This document shows, piece by piece, positions 50,615-58,712 of a stretch of DNA of 64,000 nucleotides. The stretch comes from Dictyostelium discoideum (lineage: Eukaryota), in contig CM000155.2 of the NCBI GenBank assembly GCA_000004695.1, positions 2,208,001 through 2,272,000 on the forward strand, read 5' to 3'. Numbering within the stretch: the stretch's first letter is position 1; each line of letters begins with the position of its first letter. The notes under the pieces were generated by a model. The model saw only the letters and a list, made by a program, of their open reading frames with translations, had not been told where the DNA came from and did not search any database. Both the position numbers and the translations under genes were made by a program.

Positions 50615-50686
50615 GTTTCGATAGCTCAGTGGAAGAGCAAGCGACTGCAAATCGTTAGGTCGCCAGTTCAATCCTGGTTCGGAACT
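50615..50686 (+). tRNA. tRNA-Cys (anticodon GCA)
   Basis: The 72-nt sequence GTTTCGATAGCTCAGTGGAAGAGCAAGCGACTGCAAATCGTTAGGTCGCCAGTTCAATCCTGGTTCGGAACT folds as a cloverleaf. It has a 7-bp acceptor stem (one G-U pair), A-box TAGCTCAGTGG, anticodon loop CTGCAAA with GCA at positions 34-36, and B-box GTTCAATCC. A TTTTT Pol III terminator follows 6 nt downstream. Confidence 0.8.
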
Positions 50687-50785
50687 TTCTTTTTGGGGAA
50701 ATCAATCTTGTTATTGTTTCATATTAAAAAGTTTTCTTTTTGAAATTTTAATATGTTATTAGATTCTTTTTTAAAATTTTGGTTT

Positions 50786-51081
50786 GTTAGTTTGTTTGAA
50801 ATCTTCCCCAATCTCATAGGAATAATAGCACACCAATTATGGAAGATAATCTGTCACAAATTGTTCAACACTGATGAAAGCAAACCAGAGCCAAAATTCG
50901 AACAAAAGGTCATAGAAACAGAATTACTAAATCTCATCGAAACTGAAAAATTCATCACACTAAAGAAAATCAAACACGACGAAGCAATACTAAAAAATAC
51001 AAATCAAGATCTTCACAAATACAAATTCAACAAAGCCTGGCAAACCCCAGCAGCTCCGAACCCTCTTCCAATTTAAGTAGT

Positions 51082-51144
<63 letters not shown>

Positions 51145-51261
51145 GTTTAAAAAATTTAATACAATTGAATAATAAAAATAAAACCGTTTAACAAACACCG
51201 CCGAAAAGACACAAGGACATTCCTTGAAGGTCTGATCACAGGTAAAAAAAAAAAAAAAAAA
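50786..51261 (+). mobile_element. 5'-truncated non-LTR retrotransposon fragment (TRE3-like by position) flanked by a 14-bp target-site duplication
   Basis: The repeat-unit flank sequence …aaattttggtttgttagtttgt is interrupted at 50785 and resumes at 51262. The 14-mer GTTTGTTAGTTTGT is duplicated at 50772-50785 and 51262-51275. The insert carries an open, relatively GC-rich frame from its first base (…IFPNLIGIIAHQLWKIICHKLFNTDESKPEPKFEQKVIETELLNLIETEKF…AWQTPAAPNPLPI*) that stops 9 nt before an (A)64 tract. A further 110 bp follows, then a terminal (A)18. The insertion point lies about 100 bp downstream of the tRNA-Cys 3' end, which is the characteristic TRE3 integration distance. Confidence 0.5.
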
Positions 51262-51299
51262 GTTTGTTAGTTTGTGAGATATTTATTTTTATTAAATTT

Positions 51300-51651
51300 T
51301 TAATTTCCACCTCTTAATACAAAATGGAGTGTGGATTCTTTTTGAATGTTATAATCTGATAAAGTACTACCTTCCTCTAATTGTTTACCAGCAAAAATAA
51401 ATCTATGTTGATCTGGTGGAATACCTTCTTTATTTTAATCTTACTATTAAATGGACTGTGGATTCCATTCGAATGTTATAATATAATAAAGTATGAACAT
51501 CCTCTAATTGTTTACCTGCAAAAATTAAAATTTGTTGATCTGGTGGAATACCTTCTTTTTCTTGAATTCTAGATTTAACCTTTTCAATAGTATCTGAATT
51601 TTTAACTTGTAATTCGAAAGTTTTACCAACTAATGAAACATAAATATACAT
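51300..51651 (-). pseudogene. decayed head-to-tail di-ubiquitin-like remnant (UBL copy 1 plus a C-terminal half-copy)
   Basis: Minus-strand ORF 51430-51651 encodes [73 protein letters not shown], which is ubiquitin-like but lacks the GG end. Immediately 3' and out of frame, 51300-51429 encodes …[42 protein letters not shown]. That is a second, more canonical ubiquitin C-terminal half ending RGG-N. Confidence 0.5.
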
Positions 51652-52171
51652 GTTGCTGTTGTTATTTTTATAATAATAATAATAATAATTAAAGTGTTTT
51701 ATAAAATAATTTGTTGGTTTGGTTTAATTGAAAATAAAAAAAAAAAAAAACCTTTTAATTTTATAAATAAAAATTTATCTCCATTGTTATTACTACTCTT
51801 GCAAGAGACATTCAAAAAAAAAAAAAAAATCTTAAATTTGTAAGCATGACTCATAATTAAAAAAAAAAAACAAATTTCTCCAATTTTCCAAATTTATTGA
51901 GGGAACTCTAAAAAAAAAAAAAGGCAAAATTTAATAAATTGGGTACCTCGACAAAAAAAAAATATAAAATTAAAAGTAATCATTTATTATTTAATTAATG
52001 TAAATGACCTAATAATGATTATAATCAATCACTTTTTCTAAATAAAATTTTTTTATTATCACTTGTTGAAAAGAGATTACAAAAAAAAAAAAAAAAAAAA
52101 AAATTAAAAAAAAAAAAGAAAAATTATTTACTTAACCACGATAAAAAAAATAAAATAAAAATTAAACCAAA

Positions 52172-52252
52172 CTAAATCAAATCAAATCAAATCAAATCAA
52201 ATCAAATCAAATCAAATCAAATCAAATCAAATCAAATCAAATCGAATCTAAT
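52172..52252. repeat. (AAATC)n pentanucleotide microsatellite, about 16 units
   Basis: Direct reading of aaatcaaatcaaatc…; the last units are mutated (cgaatctaatcaaattaaatt). Confidence 0.9.
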
Positions 52253-53063
52253 CAAATTAAATTAAACAAAATCAAAAAAAAAAAAAAAAAAAAAAAATTA
52301 ATTATATAAAAAAATAAAATTGTATAAAAACAAACTATACTTACTGAACCTACAAATTTTTATTAATCATAGAAAGAAATTTTTATGTTATCAAATATCA
52401 TTATTTTTTTTTTTTTTTTTATTTTTTTTTTTTTAATATGAATTTGTAATTTTATTAAAATGTTATTTTAAAAAATGTGGTTGCTAAATTAATTGAAACT
52501 TTTTTAATATAAAAACTTATTGTGTTTTTTTGTGTTTATTTGATTTTTTTGTTTTTATTTTTTTTCTCACCTAAATAAAAAAAAAATAAAAAATAAAATA
52601 AAAAATTAATGAAAAAGGTCGAACACCGGTTGTAGGTTTTGTTGCATCTGTAAAATCAATTATTTATTCTTATAATCAATTATTCATTCACAATCACCGG
52701 CCTCATCAAATTCATTTACATGACCCCATTAGATTTCAATTTGTTTAATCAGATTATTTAGATATGTACATATCACAAAAAGGAATTCCAAAGGTGTATA
52801 ACAAATCACCAGTACATCAATTATCTACATTACTATCATTTTTATAAACATTTTACCATTTACTCCCTTATTTCTGTGATATAGAATTTAGGTTACAATC
52901 AATTACGATAATCCATCATTATGAATTATAATTCCACGTCTATATTTAAATTTTAATTTTTTAATATGAATTTGGATTCTTTTTTTTTTAAATTTTGGTT
53001 AGTTGGTTTGTAAGATTAAAAGGAAATTAATAAACTAGAAGATGTTTAGTTTTATTTAATTTT

Positions 53064-53297
53064 TTAATTTCCTCCTCTTAATCTAAGTGATAAATTGATT
53101 GTGGAACCCGGTTGAATTTTTAATTCTCCTAAAGTACGACCATTCTCTAATTTTTTACCTAAGAAAGATAATGTTTGTTGATCAATTGGAACACCTTCTC
53201 TTCCTTCAATTACAGCTTTAACCCTTTCAATAGTATCTGTTTCTTTAAATTCGTATGAGACGGCGGAATTACCAACTTTTTTAACAAAAATTTGCAT
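53064..53297 (-). CDS. divergent ubiquitin/NEDD8-like protein with a -RGG-N C-terminus (intact copy within the repeat array)
   Basis: 77-aa ORF: [77 protein letters not shown]. It has a beta-grasp ubiquitin fold (MQIFVK start, I44-equivalent context, LRLRGG) with a one-residue C-terminal extension, as in ubiquitin-like modifier precursors. It is about 45% identical to ubiquitin. Confidence 0.6.
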
Positions 53298-53856
53298 GCT
53301 GTTGTCGTTTCAATAATTATAATAAAAATAATAATTATAATTATAAAAATAAAAATTATAAAAATAATAATAATAATAAAAATAATAATAATAATAATAA
53401 CAATAATAATAAGGTTTTATTTATTATTTATTATTTATCATTACCATTGAAAATAATTATAAACCTTTTTCTATTTTTTTTTTTTTTTAAAATTTTTTAA
53501 AAAATTACTAAAAAGAGTTAATTTCATTTTTTTAATTTTTAGTCATTATTATGTGAAAAATAATTTTTATTTTTTATTTTTGTGGGATAATAATAAAATT
53601 TTTTAAATTAACTTTATCAATAGGCATGATTCATAATTTTTTGTGGTGTTGGAATTAAAAAAAAATAAAATGCGAGCGATTACTTTTTGAGGTTTTAAAA
53701 AAAAAGTTGCAAACAACTAACCATTGCCTCATAAATTACTTTTCACCGTTTTAATTCAAAAATTATAATATCTGCAAGATCAACCTAAAAATTTCTAACA
53801 AAATAAAAAATTGGAAATTTTTAAAATATTTAACTCCATTATTTCAGTGATAGAGA

Positions 53857-53940
53857 GTTTAGGTTACAATAAATATTATTCATCATGAATAATATACCGC
53901 GTTTAATAATTCTTCATCTGTATTTGATTGTAACCTAAAC
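53857..53940. repeat. perfect 14-bp inverted repeat (GTTTAGGTTACAAT / ATTGTAACCTAAAC) separated by 56 bp, inside repeat block P
   Basis: The left arm at 53857-53870 and the right arm at 53927-53940 are exact reverse complements. The loop itself contains a near-palindrome, TATTATTCATCATGAATAATA. Degraded versions occur in the other P blocks (52880-52905 and 54770-54830). Confidence 0.7.
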
Positions 53941-54451
53941 CCTCTACCCCACTTACAAGTATATCTAACTTTTAAAATAGAAATTAATTAAAAATTAAAT
54001 AATTAATTAATTGAAAAAAGAGTATCAAGTTAAAGACACTCTATCCGCTACGAATAAAATAAATTTTAAAAATAAAAAAAAAAAATATTATTTTTGAATT
54101 ATTTTTATATTTTTTTTATATAATTTTTATATTAATAGATAAATAACCTTTTCTTAAACAAAATTTCACTACAACTATATGGCCAATGATATCTGGTAAA
54201 AGAAAAATTTTTTTTTTTTTTTTTAAAAATTTTAATTCAAAAATTAATTTTCTGTATAGATTATTTTAAAATACAAGTTTTCAATTAAATAGCAACATAT
54301 CTATTAATAACTTTGGTGATGAGGTTAAATTTTAAAATTTTATTTTTTAATATGAATTTGGATCCTTTTTTTTAAAATTTTATTTTGTTTGTAAGATTAA
54401 AAGGAAAATAATAAACAAGAAGATGTTTAGTTTTATTAAATTTTTTATATA

Positions 54452-54660
54452 AAACATCTTAATTTGGATTTTAAACTGACTGTGGAATCTGGATAAATTT
54501 TATATTAGTCTAAAGTACGACCATATTTGTTGATCTGTTGGAGTACCTTCTTTTGTTGAATTTTAGCTTTAACCTTTTCAATAGTATCTGTTTCAGTAAC
54601 TTGGTATGTGCTGGTTTGTATACCAACTATCTGGACAAAAAGTTTCATGTTGCTGTTGTT
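54452..54660 (-). pseudogene. ubiquitin-like pseudogene with an internal deletion (UBL copy 3 of the array)
   Basis: The minus strand reads MKLFVQIVGIQTSTYQVTETDTIEKVKAKIQQKK|VLQQINKYGRTLD*. The N-terminal half matches UBL copy 2 and ubiquitin (TETDTIEKVKAKIQ). The frame then collapses and the GG terminus is lost. The 3' flank (block F) is conserved. Confidence 0.5.
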
Positions 54661-55233
54661 GTTTTAAAATTATAATTATAGGTTTTTATAAAAATAAAAA
54701 ATAATTTGAAAAAAAAATAAAAAATTGGAAATTTCAAAAATATAATTTAAATACCTTATTTCAGTGATTGGATGTTTAAGTTACAGGTGATGAATTAAAT
54801 ACCTCATTTAATAATTAGTCATCTGTATTTGATTATAACCCTATGAACATTGGAAAGAGTGCATTCATTAATTCAAGTTAAAGACACTCTGTTCACTATG
54901 AATAAAATAAGTATTAAAATAAAAAATAAAAAATTAAAATTAAAAAAATTATTAATTGAGCTCAATTCGAATAATAATTAAGATACTATAGTAATATTTA
55001 ATAACTTTTTTTTTTTTTTTTTTAATATTATTTGCAAACCCAAAAAAAAAAAAAAAAAAAAAAAAAAAATAAATAAATAAACTCATTTTATAAACAATAT
55101 TGACTTTTGGTGTCCATAAAATAACTGGAAAGATTTAAAAAAAATTAAAAATGTGGAATGAGATCAATCTATTACTATATTTAAAATTAAAAAATTAAAT
55201 TGGAATTGTGCGATAAAAAATACCCTCTAAAAT

Positions 55234-55278
<45 letters not shown>

Positions 55279-56368
55279 TCATTTACATTAATTAAACAAT
55301 CTTTATTTAGGTTATTTTTAAAAGTAAATTCAAACTATTAATAAAAAGATAAAATCGGATTTCGATAATTTTAATTTTATAAATATATTTTTTAGTATTG
55401 TTTTTTTTTTTTTAAGTTATTTTATATTATTTACAACTAACATTTTTTTTTTTTTTTAAGTTATTTTATATTATTTTATATTATTTTTATATTATTTTTA
55501 TATTATTTTTATATTATTTTTATATTAATAGATAAATCACCTTTTCTTAAACAAAATTTCACTACAATTATATGGCTAATGATATAAATCTAATCAAAGA
55601 AATTTTTTTTTTTTTTTTTTTTTTAAAAAATAATAGTTTTCGTTTTAAATTAAAAATTAATTTTCTGTATAGATTATTTTAAAATACAAGTTTTCAATTA
55701 AATAACAACACATCTATTACCAAGTTTGTTAAAAAATTACCAAGAAATAAATTAAAAAATATTTGTGGTTATAGTGTGTATGTAAATGCTTAAAAAAAAA
55801 AAATAAAGCTAAGGAAAAAAAAAAAAATCTACAAACCACACATATTTTAACACACTCACACACACACGCATACACACTAAAAACTATTTTTACTATTGAA
55901 ATATATAAAGACATAATCAAAAATAACAACAACTACCATTCAAGATGAATCGTAATTTTTTTTTTTTTAAAAACGTCTTCCACATTTTATATGTTAAGAC
56001 TATTTAATATATATTTTATTTAATTAATTTTAAAATTTTTAAAATAATGGATTATATTATTGTTATTTAAAGGAAAAAAATAAATAAATAAATAAAAATA
56101 ATAGTTAAAAATAAAAAACAAATAATAAAGTAATAATAAAAAAAAAAAAAAAGGTTATTTTATTTTAAACAATTCGATTGAATAAAATCAATTTTCCTTA
56201 AAAAAAAAAATAAAAATAAAAAAATAAAAAAAAGAATTAAATTTTATAGAATCCTATAAAAATTTTGTAATATTATTATTTATTTTTTAATTTATTTATT
56301 TAATTATTTATTTTTTTTCTTATTTTTAAAAAAACTAAAAAATAAATAAAAAAAAAAAAAATAATTGA

Positions 56369-56404
<36 letters not shown>

Positions 56405-56408
<4 letters not shown>

Positions 56409-58712
56409 GAAATATAAATAAAAAATTATTTTACTTTTTAATTCAATTAATAACAATTCTAATTGTTTTATCAGATGGTAAATATTTAAATTATATTTTT
56501 AATATTTTATATGATTTTTTTATTAACTATTATTTTTTAAAAAGATTCATATAATAGTTTATTACCACTTGAAAAGGATATAGCAGTTATAATTAGGGAT
56601 TTATCACCACAAACCAATCCAGATTTTGAAATTGATAATCCAAATCGTGTTATAAAAGGGTTAGTTAAGGATCAATTGAATGAAGAAGATCGTAGTCCAA
56701 TTTATTGTTGTGGAGATGATCATGCACCAAATATCGATAGAAATAGATTTGTAATACATAATCAAAGTACATTTTATAGTTGGTTTCATAATCAAAAGGA
56801 TGTTAATATTGTAATTTCCAAATCATTAGTATTCACTAGAAATGTTACATCTGATGATCCAAGAATTTACTCTTATGAAAGTGATAATTTCTTTCCAATT
56901 GATAAGATGGGTTTTGAAGCAGATTCATACAATGGACCAATAAAAAAGAATCAATGGAAGGATAGATGGGGATTTCCAAGAAATTTCCATTTCTGCTTAG
57001 AGTTACATGCTTCATTTTTCTATATTGGTGGTGAATTATTCAGTTTCAAAGGTGATGATGATGTTTGGGTATTCATTGATAATCGTTTGGTATTGGATTT
57101 GGGTGCACCACATGATGTGTCTGGTCAAAATGGTCAAGGATCTGTATATTTGGATAATTTAGGTTTAGAGAAGAGTAAGAGTTACAATTTCGATTTCTTC
57201 TATTGTGAGCGTCATACAACCGATTCTCATATTATGGTTGAGACAAGTATAGATTTCAAATGTAAATACTATGACTATTGTGGTGTTTGTGAAGGTATGG
57301 GTAAATGTTGTAATCCTTCAGAGTGTTATGGTAGTTTGCCTGCATGTGGCCATTTCGAATGTCCAGGTTTAACTGATATCGCTCCAAATGTTGATTGGCG
57401 TTATCATTGTAAAGTTGTAGTTCCAAATTGTTCCCTCTCTGATACATTCTGTGTTAAACATCAATGTGACCCTGATAGTAAACAATGTGTACCATCCACT
57501 GATTATCAACCATGTCAAGGTAAATCCAATAGTTCTTGTATCGAAGCCCGTTGTGATGATAAAATGGGTGGTTGTTACTTAAAGAGTAAACCAAAGGATC
57601 AATCTAAAAATGATACAACTTGTTATCGTGAAACTTGTAATGAAGATACTAGCACTTGGGAGTATAAAGCACTTTGTGAAGATGATTCTGATAAATGTAT
57701 TTCAAAGAAATGTATTCCAAATTCTGGTTGCTCCAGTAGCGTTGTTGATTGTAATGATAACAATCATTGTACCATCGATAGTTGTTCAAAGGATACTGGT
57801 TGCATTCATGACCCAATTGAAAATTGTGTACCATGTGTTGAAGGCAATAAATGTTCAGAATCCAGTGATAAATGTCAACAATTGGAATGTAATCCATACA
57901 ATAGTACAACGGAATGTATTGATCGTACTAAAAAGAATTGTGATGATTCAAATGCTTGTACTATTGATACTTGTAATGGTGAAAGTGGTGAATGTGAAAA
58001 TACTCCAAAACAATGTCTTGCTAAAAATAAATGCTCCACTGCACGTTGTAACTCTAAAACAGGCCAATGTGATAATATCTATCATTGTGATGATGGTATA
58101 CTTTGTACTCTCGATAAATGTTCAGAAAATGGTACTTGCTATTATGAAGCAAATCCATGTGATGATGGTGATCAATGTACAATTGACATTTGTTTGAATA
58201 CTCTAACTGAAACTGGTGGTTGCTCTCACAGTGCTCGTGTTTGTGAACCAAAAAATTCATGTTTTACAAGTCATTGTGATAAAAAGTTGGGTTGTGTTCA
58301 AACTCCAATTGAATGCCCAGTTGAAGCTTTCTGTTTAATTAGTTTCTGTGATAATTCAACAAAGAAATGTATGACCGCTGATAGACCATGTATTCCTGAT
58401 GATCCACGTTGTCAATATGGTGTTTGTGATAACGATACCAAAGCTTGTATTTTTAAAGACTATGATCCATTACCATTTAAATGTCAATCTGCTGCTGTTA
58501 AAGCTGCCGTTGGTGTTGGTGCTGGTGCTGCAGCTGGTATTGCCATTGGTGGTGCAATTGCATTAGGTCTTGCTGCTTTTGGTGGTAAACGTGGTTATGA
58601 TGCTTGGAAATCCTCAAGAGATAATCAAATCCAAACTTCTTCTGAAAATCCATTATATAATCCAAATCCAAATCAAGGTGATAATCCACTTTATGCTGCT
58701 AATAATTCTTGA
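56405..58712 (+). CDS. PA14-domain, Cys-rich-repeat type I membrane glycoprotein (psi / prespore-cell-inducing-factor-like family); join(56405..56477,56545..58712)
   Basis: Exon 1 is a signal peptide, MGNINKKLFYFLIQLITILIVLSD, ending at a G|GTAAAT donor in phase 1. Exon 2 follows AAAAAG|. It has a PA14-like region (…FHFCLELHASFFYIGGELFSFKGDDDVWVFIDNRLVLDLGAPHD…YNFDFFYCERH) and then about 20 Dictyostelium-type Cys repeats (C.IDTC…, …CDDG..CT.D.C). It ends with a Gly/Ala-rich transmembrane helix (AAVGVGAGAAAGIAIGGAIALGLAAFGG) and a short tail, KRGYDAWKSS…NPLYAANNS. Total 746 aa. Confidence 0.75.

Follow-up and report, generated by a model that had tools for sequence, protein, structure and literature searches.

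The ubiquitin family of Dictyostelium discoideum (ubqA to ubqP in dictyBase) comprises polyubiquitin, ribosomal-fusion and single-repeat genes, and a review of the Dictyostelium ubiquitin system counts four single-repeat ubiquitin genes, two of them without a ribosomal-protein fusion. In humans, UBB pseudogene 4 (UBBP4) encodes expressed ubiquitin variants (PMC7066184). As for mobile elements, the defining behaviour of TRE3 elements is their integration approximately 100 bp downstream of tRNA genes (PMC5006619, PMC5633606). These systems are the background for a locus on chromosome 6 of D. discoideum AX4, analysed within a 64-kb stretch of DNA (contig CM000155.2, positions 2,208,001 to 2,272,000; from here on the window, whose numbering is used throughout). 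The locus consists of three diverged head-to-tail units at 50738-55728, each of them carrying a minus-strand ubiquitin-like open reading frame (ORF), and very likely represents a birth-and-death cluster, in which a segment comprising a single-repeat ubiquitin gene and its flanks was duplicated locally and in tandem. It is an already known, annotated tandem cluster of ubiquitin-family genes and not a new kind of repeat.

The units were delimited by BLASTN, MAFFT and block identities, and the blocks shared between them are designated by letters:

50738..52944, minus strand: unit 1, with block F1 (split by an insert), the gene ubqN with an internal duplication, the R motif, an AT-rich spacer and a truncated block P1.
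52945..54330, minus strand: unit 2 (1386 bp), with F2, the gene ubqO, R, a complete P2, C2 and Q2.
54331..55728, minus strand: unit 3 (1398 bp), with F3, a dead ubiquitin-like gene, P3, C3 and Q3.

The array was mapped by self-BLASTN of 50.4-56.4 kb against the whole window, which returned collinear direct matches. Units 2 and 3 match each other in four segments (52945-53373 with 54331-54723, 53797-53935 with 54711-54840, 54025-54086 with 54873-54934, and 54085-54315 with 55478-55728), with a start-to-start spacing of 1386-1393 bp, and units 1 and 2 do so in three (50738-50795 with 52951-53011, 51435-51689 with 53078-53338, and 52859-52919 with 53830-53886). A MAFFT global alignment of the three units, affected by large indels, put blocks P and C wrongly and was replaced by block-wise global alignments, from which all block identities were taken, with composition-matched shuffles as controls. 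Units 2 and 3 are 92% identical in F and in Q, 85% in C, 83% in P and 76% in the coding sequence (CDS), as compared to 34-62% for the shuffles, and the corresponding values for units 1 and 2 are 83% in F, 73% in the CDS and 83% in P, against 39-65%. The collinearity of the matches and identities above those of the shuffles establish the array as real, and not as a series of chance A/T-rich matches in a window with a G+C content of 14-37% per 2 kb. Nor is it an assembly artefact, because the independent assembly GCA_054883475.1 (sequence L003) carries the whole array almost base for base.

The original prediction, made from the letters of the window, had placed the array at 51262-55750 and described it as three units of roughly 1.4 kb sharing the same ordered blocks. 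The array is present, but its true extent is 50738-55728, the F block of unit 1 being split by a retroelement. The predicted size holds for units 2 and 3, and not for unit 1, which measures 2.2 kb with the insert and approximately 1.74 kb without it. Likewise, F and the CDS recur in all units, but C and Q are confined to units 2 and 3 and the R motif to units 1 and 2, so that unit 1 contributes to the common parts only F, the CDS, the R motif and a truncated P. In unit 3, P3 directly adjoins the gene, approximately 430 bp (R included) of the gene-to-P stretch of unit 2 being missing, and some 540 bp of additional AT-rich DNA lie between C3 and Q3. Much of the extra length of the unit-1 spacer is taken up by an (AAATC)n microsatellite of around 25 copies (52148-52276) placed between long A and T runs.

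A cluster look-up showed that the three ubiquitin-like ORFs are exact matches to annotated AX4 genes:

53064..53297, minus strand: ubqO (DDB_G0292908, UniProt Q54CI0), an intact ubiquitin variant of 77 amino acids (aa) ending LRLRGG-N (ORF, annotation, PF00240).
51430..51651, minus strand: ubqN (DDB_G0292984, Q54CI1), a 73-aa ubiquitin-like ORF ending VRLK, without Gly-Gly (annotation, PF00240).
54457..54648, minus strand: ubiquitin-like pseudogene remnant of unit 3 (deletions, in-frame stop), within which the annotated 47-aa ORF DDB_G0292910 (Q54CH9) occupies 54505-54648.

The earlier claim that the repeated gene is not explained by ordinary annotation thus has to be withdrawn, all three copies being annotated and two of them named. 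The dictyBase names ubqN and ubqO appear in the supplementary tables of two papers, where both genes are grouped with ubqH, ubqJ, ubqL, ubqM and ubqP as ubiquitin paralogues. In the literature searched, the DDB_G identifiers occur in no paper text, and ubqN and ubqO of Dictyostelium are discussed nowhere. Elsewhere in the genome, ubqL and ubqM (DDB_G0280587 and DDB_G0280589) bear consecutive dictyBase gene identifiers, which suggests that another two ubiquitin-family genes lie side by side and that tandem duplication recurs in the family.

Membership of the ubiquitin family is clear for two of the copies. With a curated cut-off of 25.4 bits for PF00240, ubqO scores 73.9 bits (E 9e-21) and ubqN 84.7 bits (E 3.7e-24), while the 47-aa ORF of unit 3 stays below it at 19.8 bits. 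Among solved structures, the best match to ubqO by sequence is ubiquitin and not NEDD8 or SUMO. None of the copies is nearly identical to canonical ubiquitin, the identities being 54-56% for ubqO, 65% for ubqN and 37% for unit 3. The C-terminal Gly-Gly is present in ubqO (LRLRGG-N) and absent from both ubqN (VRLK) and unit 3 (RCFI). It had been anticipated that this is not a normal polyubiquitin locus, and this is fully borne out: every unit possesses a separate ATG and stop, neighbouring ORFs are spaced at 1.4-1.6 kb, and the sole intragenic repeat has a period of 127 bp. Of the three readings put forward at the outset, that of a birth-and-death family is the one that stands, since the copies are arranged head to tail, carry their own flanks and show a graded divergence (intact, truncated and dead).

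The order of the duplications can be read from residues and junctions. Compared with ubiquitin and unit 1, units 2 and 3 share seven derived residues (L8V, T9G, L15Y, G19E, S20T, N60K and K63P), and because they also have the most similar flanks (83-92%) they constitute the younger pair. Unit 1 branched off earlier and remains closest to ubiquitin. P1 breaks off exactly at the start of F2, and unit 2 has the whole P followed by C and Q. The unit junctions are therefore unlike, running from mid-P into F between units 1 and 2 and from Q into F between units 2 and 3, so that they call for two or more separate events or for a subsequent deletion. In the simplest history, a segment from F to mid-P would have been duplicated to give unit 1 and a proto-unit 2, and a duplication of the full F-to-Q segment (1.39 kb) would then have produced units 2 and 3. 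Alternatively, unequal crossing-over could have come first, with a deletion in unit 1 afterwards; the coincidence of both left breakpoints within a few bases leaves room for this history. Later on, unit 1 acquired its internal 127-bp tandem duplication, which makes the protein end in VRLK before the Gly-Gly, unit 3 lost its reading frame as well as approximately 430 bp upstream of the gene, the R motif among them, and unit 2 kept the exact ubiquitin-type ORF. The most recent event is the arrival of a TRE3-type element, which targeted the tRNA-Cys gene nearby and inserted into the 3' flank of unit 1. In this manner the cluster offers a compact example of gene birth and death at three stages (functional, truncated and dead), whose events a polymorphic retroelement helps to put in order. 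As a genome feature it matters little, being an annotated tandem cluster with a textbook TRE3-type insertion.

The coding region of unit 1 deserves separate consideration, since it had been interpreted as a collapsed di-ubiquitin remnant. Besides ubqN itself, which is 65% identical to ubiquitin across residues 3-74 with a one-codon deletion (translation and TBLASTN against Dictyostelium ubiquitin), the unit contains the following feature:

51300..51431, minus strand: repeated 3' half of the unit-1 gene, codons 33-77, out of frame (TRF, BLASTN, translation).

TRF detects here a tandem repeat with a period of 127, 1.9 copies and 86% matches, and the two halves aligned by BLASTN (51312-51431 and 51439-51558) are 85% identical. 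At the junction codon 74 passes straight into codon 33. Since 127 is not divisible by three, ubqN owes its frameshift and early stop to the duplication itself. The downstream copy of the 3' half, with 85% identity to ubiquitin over residues 32-72, still reads RGGN followed by a stop. The duplication is also present in another strain (contig L001, described below). That a duplicated remnant exists is therefore correct. If it descended from a two-repeat gene, as proposed, the whole array would derive from a polyubiquitin locus; the two partial ubiquitin frames lie head to tail, and the downstream one, with its high identity, ends in GGN like a final polyubiquitin repeat. Against this, the repeat has a period of 127 bp instead of 228 bp, no second MQIF start can be discerned, and the passage from codon 74 to codon 33 is explained more parsimoniously by a single internal tandem duplication. 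A di-ubiquitin ancestor also needs an extra event, because units 2 and 3 are single-repeat and have the same flanks. Such an origin is improbable, and a single-repeat ancestor is preferred for the array. The product of ubqN, deprived of its Gly-Gly, is presumably not conjugable; it would be either a free ubiquitin-fold protein or the product of a transcribed, decaying copy.

The internal deletion postulated for unit 3 was found to be accurate. The copy has suffered a 1-bp deletion at codon 33/34 and a 29-bp deletion, contains an in-frame stop, and has RCFI in place of RGGN, with the consequent loss of Gly-Gly. Judged by these lesions, it is a pseudogene despite its annotation as a 47-aa gene.

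In agreement with what had been predicted, the only intact ubiquitin-like gene of the array is that at 53064-53297, as shown by the ORF and its translation. The 76+1-codon ORF of ubqO aligns without gaps to all 76 ubiquitin residues and differs from ubiquitin at 35 of them, the MQIFVK start and the LRLRGG tail being kept exactly. An AlphaFold2 model of ubqO, the one copy that was modelled, has a mean predicted local distance difference test score (pLDDT) of 90.3 and displays the beta-grasp fold, with strands and helix in the same order as in ubiquitin. Foldseek gives template modelling (TM) scores of 0.92-0.95 to ubiquitin structures and a root-mean-square deviation of 1.0 A to 1UBQ. By inspection of the alignment, all 16 ubiquitin core positions are still hydrophobic (11 identical and 5 conservative). 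The surface has been altered to a greater extent: the Ile44 patch carries L8V, I44S, H68N and V70S, and lysines K11, K29, K33 and K63 have been replaced (K11S, K29V, K33R and K63P), which eliminates four sites of chain linkage, with K6, K27 and K48 kept.

The question of which copies are expressed can be answered with published RNA-seq data. Values were obtained from supplementary file 5 of Kin et al. 2018 (PMC6198379). They are listed by hour, followed by values in transcripts per million (TPM) for the individual cell types:

0 h: ubqO 0, ubqN 0.
4 h: ubqO 0, ubqN 0.
8 h: ubqO 1.3, ubqN 0.
12 h: ubqO 1.4, ubqN 0.4.
16 h: ubqO 1.5, ubqN 0.
20 h: ubqO 39.9, ubqN 10.6.
24 h: ubqO 75.6, ubqN 14.7.
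Vegetative cells (TPM): ubqO 0, ubqN 0.
Mature stalk cells (TPM): ubqO 6,223.8, ubqN 195.8.
Spores (TPM): ubqO 6.2, ubqN 0.
Cup cells (TPM): ubqO 13.8, ubqN 0.07.

In these data ubqO and ubqN are late, stalk-specific genes that are silent in growth, and the surrounding rows of the table are occupied by classic stalk genes. Within the part of the table considered, ubqO is among the most abundant stalk mRNAs. The description of the unit as decaying is consequently misleading for two of the three copies, which are strongly and specifically expressed in stalk cells. In the portions of the tables that were searched, the unit-3 gene DDB_G0292910 was not found, and the text of the article mentions neither ubqO nor ubqN (PMC6198379). 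The next gene downstream of the array, psiN (DDB_G0292912, approximately 56370-58712), which codes for a PA14/Dicty_CTDC protein, is also stalk-enriched in the same dataset, with 366 TPM in stalk as compared to 0.03 in vegetative cells; this hints that the array and psiN may form a small co-expressed neighbourhood.

Units 1 and 2 have in common a short element upstream of the genes, identified by motif scan:

51844..51858, minus strand: R motif GCATGACTCATAATT, 193-207 bp upstream of the ubqN ATG, containing the palindrome TGACTCA.
53624..53638, minus strand: R motif GCATGATTCATAATT, 327-341 bp upstream of the ubqO ATG.

The R 15-mer GCATGAYTCATAATT (TGAC/TTCA core) occurs exactly twice in the window, each time upstream of an expressed gene, and it falls in the stretch that has been deleted from unit 3. 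We take its core to resemble a palindromic bZIP (AP-1/GCN4) site. In the comparison of the promoters of units 1 and 2, no conserved block rises above shuffle level other than the R motif and 45 bp beside the ATG. The motif is thus a candidate, proposed from its sequence and position, for a shared cis element that directs stalk-specific transcription.

Stalk cells differentiate terminally, vacuolise and die. The features described above point to ubqO as a functional, stalk-specific ubiquitin variant. Some Dictyostelium polyubiquitin precursors end in one extra residue, as do variant ubiquitins retrieved in our search, and the 77-aa UbqO precursor could be trimmed of its terminal Asn by a deubiquitinase in the same way as ordinary ubiquitin precursors, which would expose Gly76. 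Arg72 is the residue by which the ubiquitin E1 tells ubiquitin from NEDD8. It is kept in the LRLRGG tail of UbqO, whose activation by the ubiquitin machinery would therefore be possible. Once attached, the changed surface of UbqO would be expected to engage different readers and to support different chain types. That ubqO encodes a functional protein of some kind is somewhat probable. More doubtful, and put forward from its sequence features, is that UbqO acts as a genuinely conjugated, distinct modifier. Just as tentative is the wider proposal of a young, lineage-specific ubiquitin-like modifier, abundant only in stalk cells, that would be processed at LRLRGG-N, conjugated and read unlike ubiquitin; in such a scenario UbqO might, for example, cap chains or escape proteasome receptors during developmental cell death. 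If it were conjugated, an experimentally tractable model organism would have a cell-type-specific ubiquitin-like modifier linked with the death of cells in development. Irrespective of this, ubqO is an uncharacterised and highly diverged ubiquitin variant that represents approximately 0.6% of stalk-cell mRNA.

Several observations weigh against a functional ubqO. Nei-Gojobori dN/dS values are 1.25-3.0 for all copy pairs (dS is unreliable at a locus so extremely biased towards AT), and of all blocks the CDS shows the lowest conservation, no better than that of the flanks; therefore, comparison of the sequences yields no positive evidence of purifying selection. Neither a search of 5.8 billion sequences nor one of 1.84 billion cluster representatives returned anything closer to ubqO than ordinary ubiquitin (around 55%), and no orthologue above approximately 56% identity was found among the 1.8 billion cluster representatives. 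The gene is accordingly young or fast-evolving, and conservation is unusable as an argument for its function. Loss of the Ile44 patch may impair the handling of UbqO by E1 and E2 enzymes, in which case the protein could act as a free ubiquitin-fold protein. The protein identifiers of ubqO, ubqN and unit 3 were not found in the possibly incomplete supplementary files of a life-cycle proteome paper. Finally, the 6,224 TPM of ubqO is a value for a 234-nt gene and as such sensitive to length normalisation. With regard to searches based on proteins, the annotation of GCA_054883475.1 calls no gene across the array (L003 10324-15616) and lacks ubqN and ubqO, so that protein-based orthologue searches are limited.

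Taken to the extreme, these observations would fit with a situation in which all three copies are neutral pseudogenes, the stalk RNA being incidental output from a once-functional promoter and the ubqO frame having remained intact by luck. This explanation draws on the dN/dS ratios at or above 1 in every pair, on a CDS conserved no better than its surroundings, on the failure of sequence searches to find a close orthologue, on the visible breakage of two of the three copies and on the lack of protein identifiers in the proteome supplements. It has to face, however, an expression level of about 0.6% of stalk-cell mRNA with a tight cell-type and stage specificity, and the survival of the frame itself. 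In simulations of neutral substitution the ubqO ORF stayed intact in 2.5-5% of the runs at 14% divergence and in fewer than 0.5% at 28%, and relative to ubiquitin ubqO has no indels, as compared to several in each sister copy. A uniformly hydrophobic core, a confidently predicted ubiquitin fold and the exact retention of both the MQIFVK start and the LRLRGG tail are further difficulties. We consider general neutrality quite improbable, somewhat more so than a di-ubiquitin ancestry, and favour a birth-and-death cluster with a functional ubqO. The differences are split evenly between the lineages of units 2 and 3. Positive selection was also explored and rejected, the mismatch of the CDS not differing significantly from that of the flanks either in AT-only columns (9.6% versus 4.9%, p = 0.07) or in columns with G or C (47% versus 36%, p = 0.17).

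A third possibility is that the unit is a non-autonomous mobile element of the miniature inverted-repeat transposable element (MITE) or Pack type, which captured a ubiquitin gene and was amplified locally. What brings this to mind is the proximity of a tRNA gene, next to which Dictyostelium elements are known to land, together with a palindrome in block P of unit 2:

53847..53950, minus strand: P2 hairpin, a 24-bp inverted repeat with arms 53847-53870 and 53927-53950 (RNA fold).

The arms match at 21 of 24 positions and include a perfect 14-bp core (53857-53870 and 53927-53940). Perfect 14-bp inverted repeats had been attributed to the repeat blocks in general; the repeat does exist, but only in unit 2, its counterpart being decayed in unit 3 and truncated in unit 1. 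On the minus strand the hairpin folds with -37.2 kcal/mol and a z of -9.2 (z -6.3 for the plus strand), and it has in addition an inner 10-bp stem, and its three stem mismatches all become G-U pairs on the minus strand, which is that of the ubiquitin-like gene. The hairpin may derive from the insertion of a palindrome long ago, or it may be a precursor of small RNA. An Rfam search of 50-57 kb with E values up to 1 gave only the tRNA and two sub-threshold small nucleolar RNA matches and placed no known RNA family in P, Q, C or R, and the papers found provided no sequence with which to compare the P hairpin for a relationship to Thug or MITE elements. The palindrome is internal to the unit and not at its ends. 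Terminal inverted repeats are missing, the unit ends scoring 7.5 and 9.5 where shuffled sequences averaged 8.6 and 9.8, and by eye, without a formal scan, no target-site duplication is seen at the unit boundaries. Moreover, all copies lie immediately next to one another and point the same way, and the two junctions differ from each other as segmental duplication predicts. BLASTN located no block copies in the other 58 kb of the window; a 20.9-kb D. citrinum locus (L002) yielded one weak AT-rich match to block Q (70% identity over 112 nt). Capture by a mobile element, one of the readings first contemplated, is therefore very improbable. The last of those readings, a satellite-like complex repeat, was rejected given that there are only three copies, with unequal content and lengths (1.74, 1.39 and 1.40 kb).

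One true mobile element is nevertheless present at the locus, as had been noticed in the first unit. Its surroundings comprise:

50615..50686, plus strand: tRNA-Cys(GCA) gene (ARAGORN; Rfam tRNA, 61.4 bits).
50796..51261, plus strand: 5'-truncated fragment (466 bp) of a non-LTR (long terminal repeat) retroelement of TRE3 type (target-site duplication, empty site, distance to tRNA).
50753..51076, plus strand: DDB_G0292938, a 107-aa ORF (ORF list; exact match to an annotated protein).

The fragment consists, in this order, of the end of an ORF, a run of 51 A, 108 bp and a run of 18 A. It starts 109 bp downstream of the tRNA-Cys(GCA) gene and is bordered by a perfect target-site duplication of 14 bp, GTTTGTTAGTTTGT, at 50782-50795 and 51262-51275. 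The Logan contig L001 (1,097 bp, isolate SRR28564542) is 98.7% identical to 52103-51262 and then continues directly with 50795-50704, containing a single copy of the 14-mer; it thus represents the precise empty site in another strain. At positions 919-1097 of this contig, the match stops (at approximately 50703) 17 bp before reaching the 3' end of tRNA-Cys, and unrelated sequence takes the place of the tRNA gene, which is either a structural difference beside that gene in the isolate or a chimeric short-read unitig. At the protein level, at least nine relatives of the ORF tail are found elsewhere in assemblies of D. citrinum and D. discoideum, and one D. citrinum copy, 89% identical over 50804-51261, follows a tRNA-Leu(CAG) gene at a distance of 104 bp. 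The insert can be assigned to the TRE3 type by its behaviour, as it retains the 3' end only (around 460 bp) and with it approximately 90 C-terminal codons, which have no Pfam match, the ORF2 domains being absent. DDB_G0292938 begins in the 3' flank of unit 1, spans the target-site duplication and ends in the ORF tail of the retroelement, and in this region the D. citrinum copy shares only 50804-51261 with the window; DDB_G0292938 is probably a chimeric and spurious gene call. Near-identical 'hypothetical proteins' have been annotated at other copies of the retroelement in D. citrinum and D. discoideum assemblies.

When compared with the systems mentioned at the beginning, the insert resembles the TRE3 non-LTR retrotransposons in its spacing of around 100 bp from the tRNA gene, its poly(A) tail, its target-site duplication, its 5' truncation and the existence of dispersed copies, and it departs from them in that the last 460 bp or so stand alone, without the diagnostic ORF2 domains. 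With ubiquitin and the ubq family of D. discoideum the array shares PF00240, a gap-free alignment over 76 residues, the MQIFVK start, the LRLRGG end followed by one residue and the superposition of the ubqO model on 1UBQ at 1.0 A, and its genes are already filed as ubqN and ubqO. Unlike the polyubiquitin genes of that family, they are separate single-repeat genes 1.4 kb apart with no poly-protein ORF. They also differ from canonical ubiquitin in the altered Ile44 patch and the change of four of the seven lysines of ubqO, in the lack of Gly-Gly in ubqN, and in an expression that is restricted to the stalk (PMC6198379) instead of general or stress-induced. The closest analogy is found in UBBP4-like loci, where duplicated ubiquitin copies likewise diverge, some of them dead and others transcribed with altered surfaces. 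The human copies are nevertheless only a few residues away from ubiquitin, as opposed to 35 of 76 positions for ubqO, and the copies described here, instead of being dispersed, arose by tandem segmental duplication, have promoters of their own and are known at the RNA level. Finally, tandem birth-and-death families display the same head-to-tail copies with their flanks, the same graded divergence and the same mixture of functional, truncated and dead members, and from these the array exhibits no essential difference.

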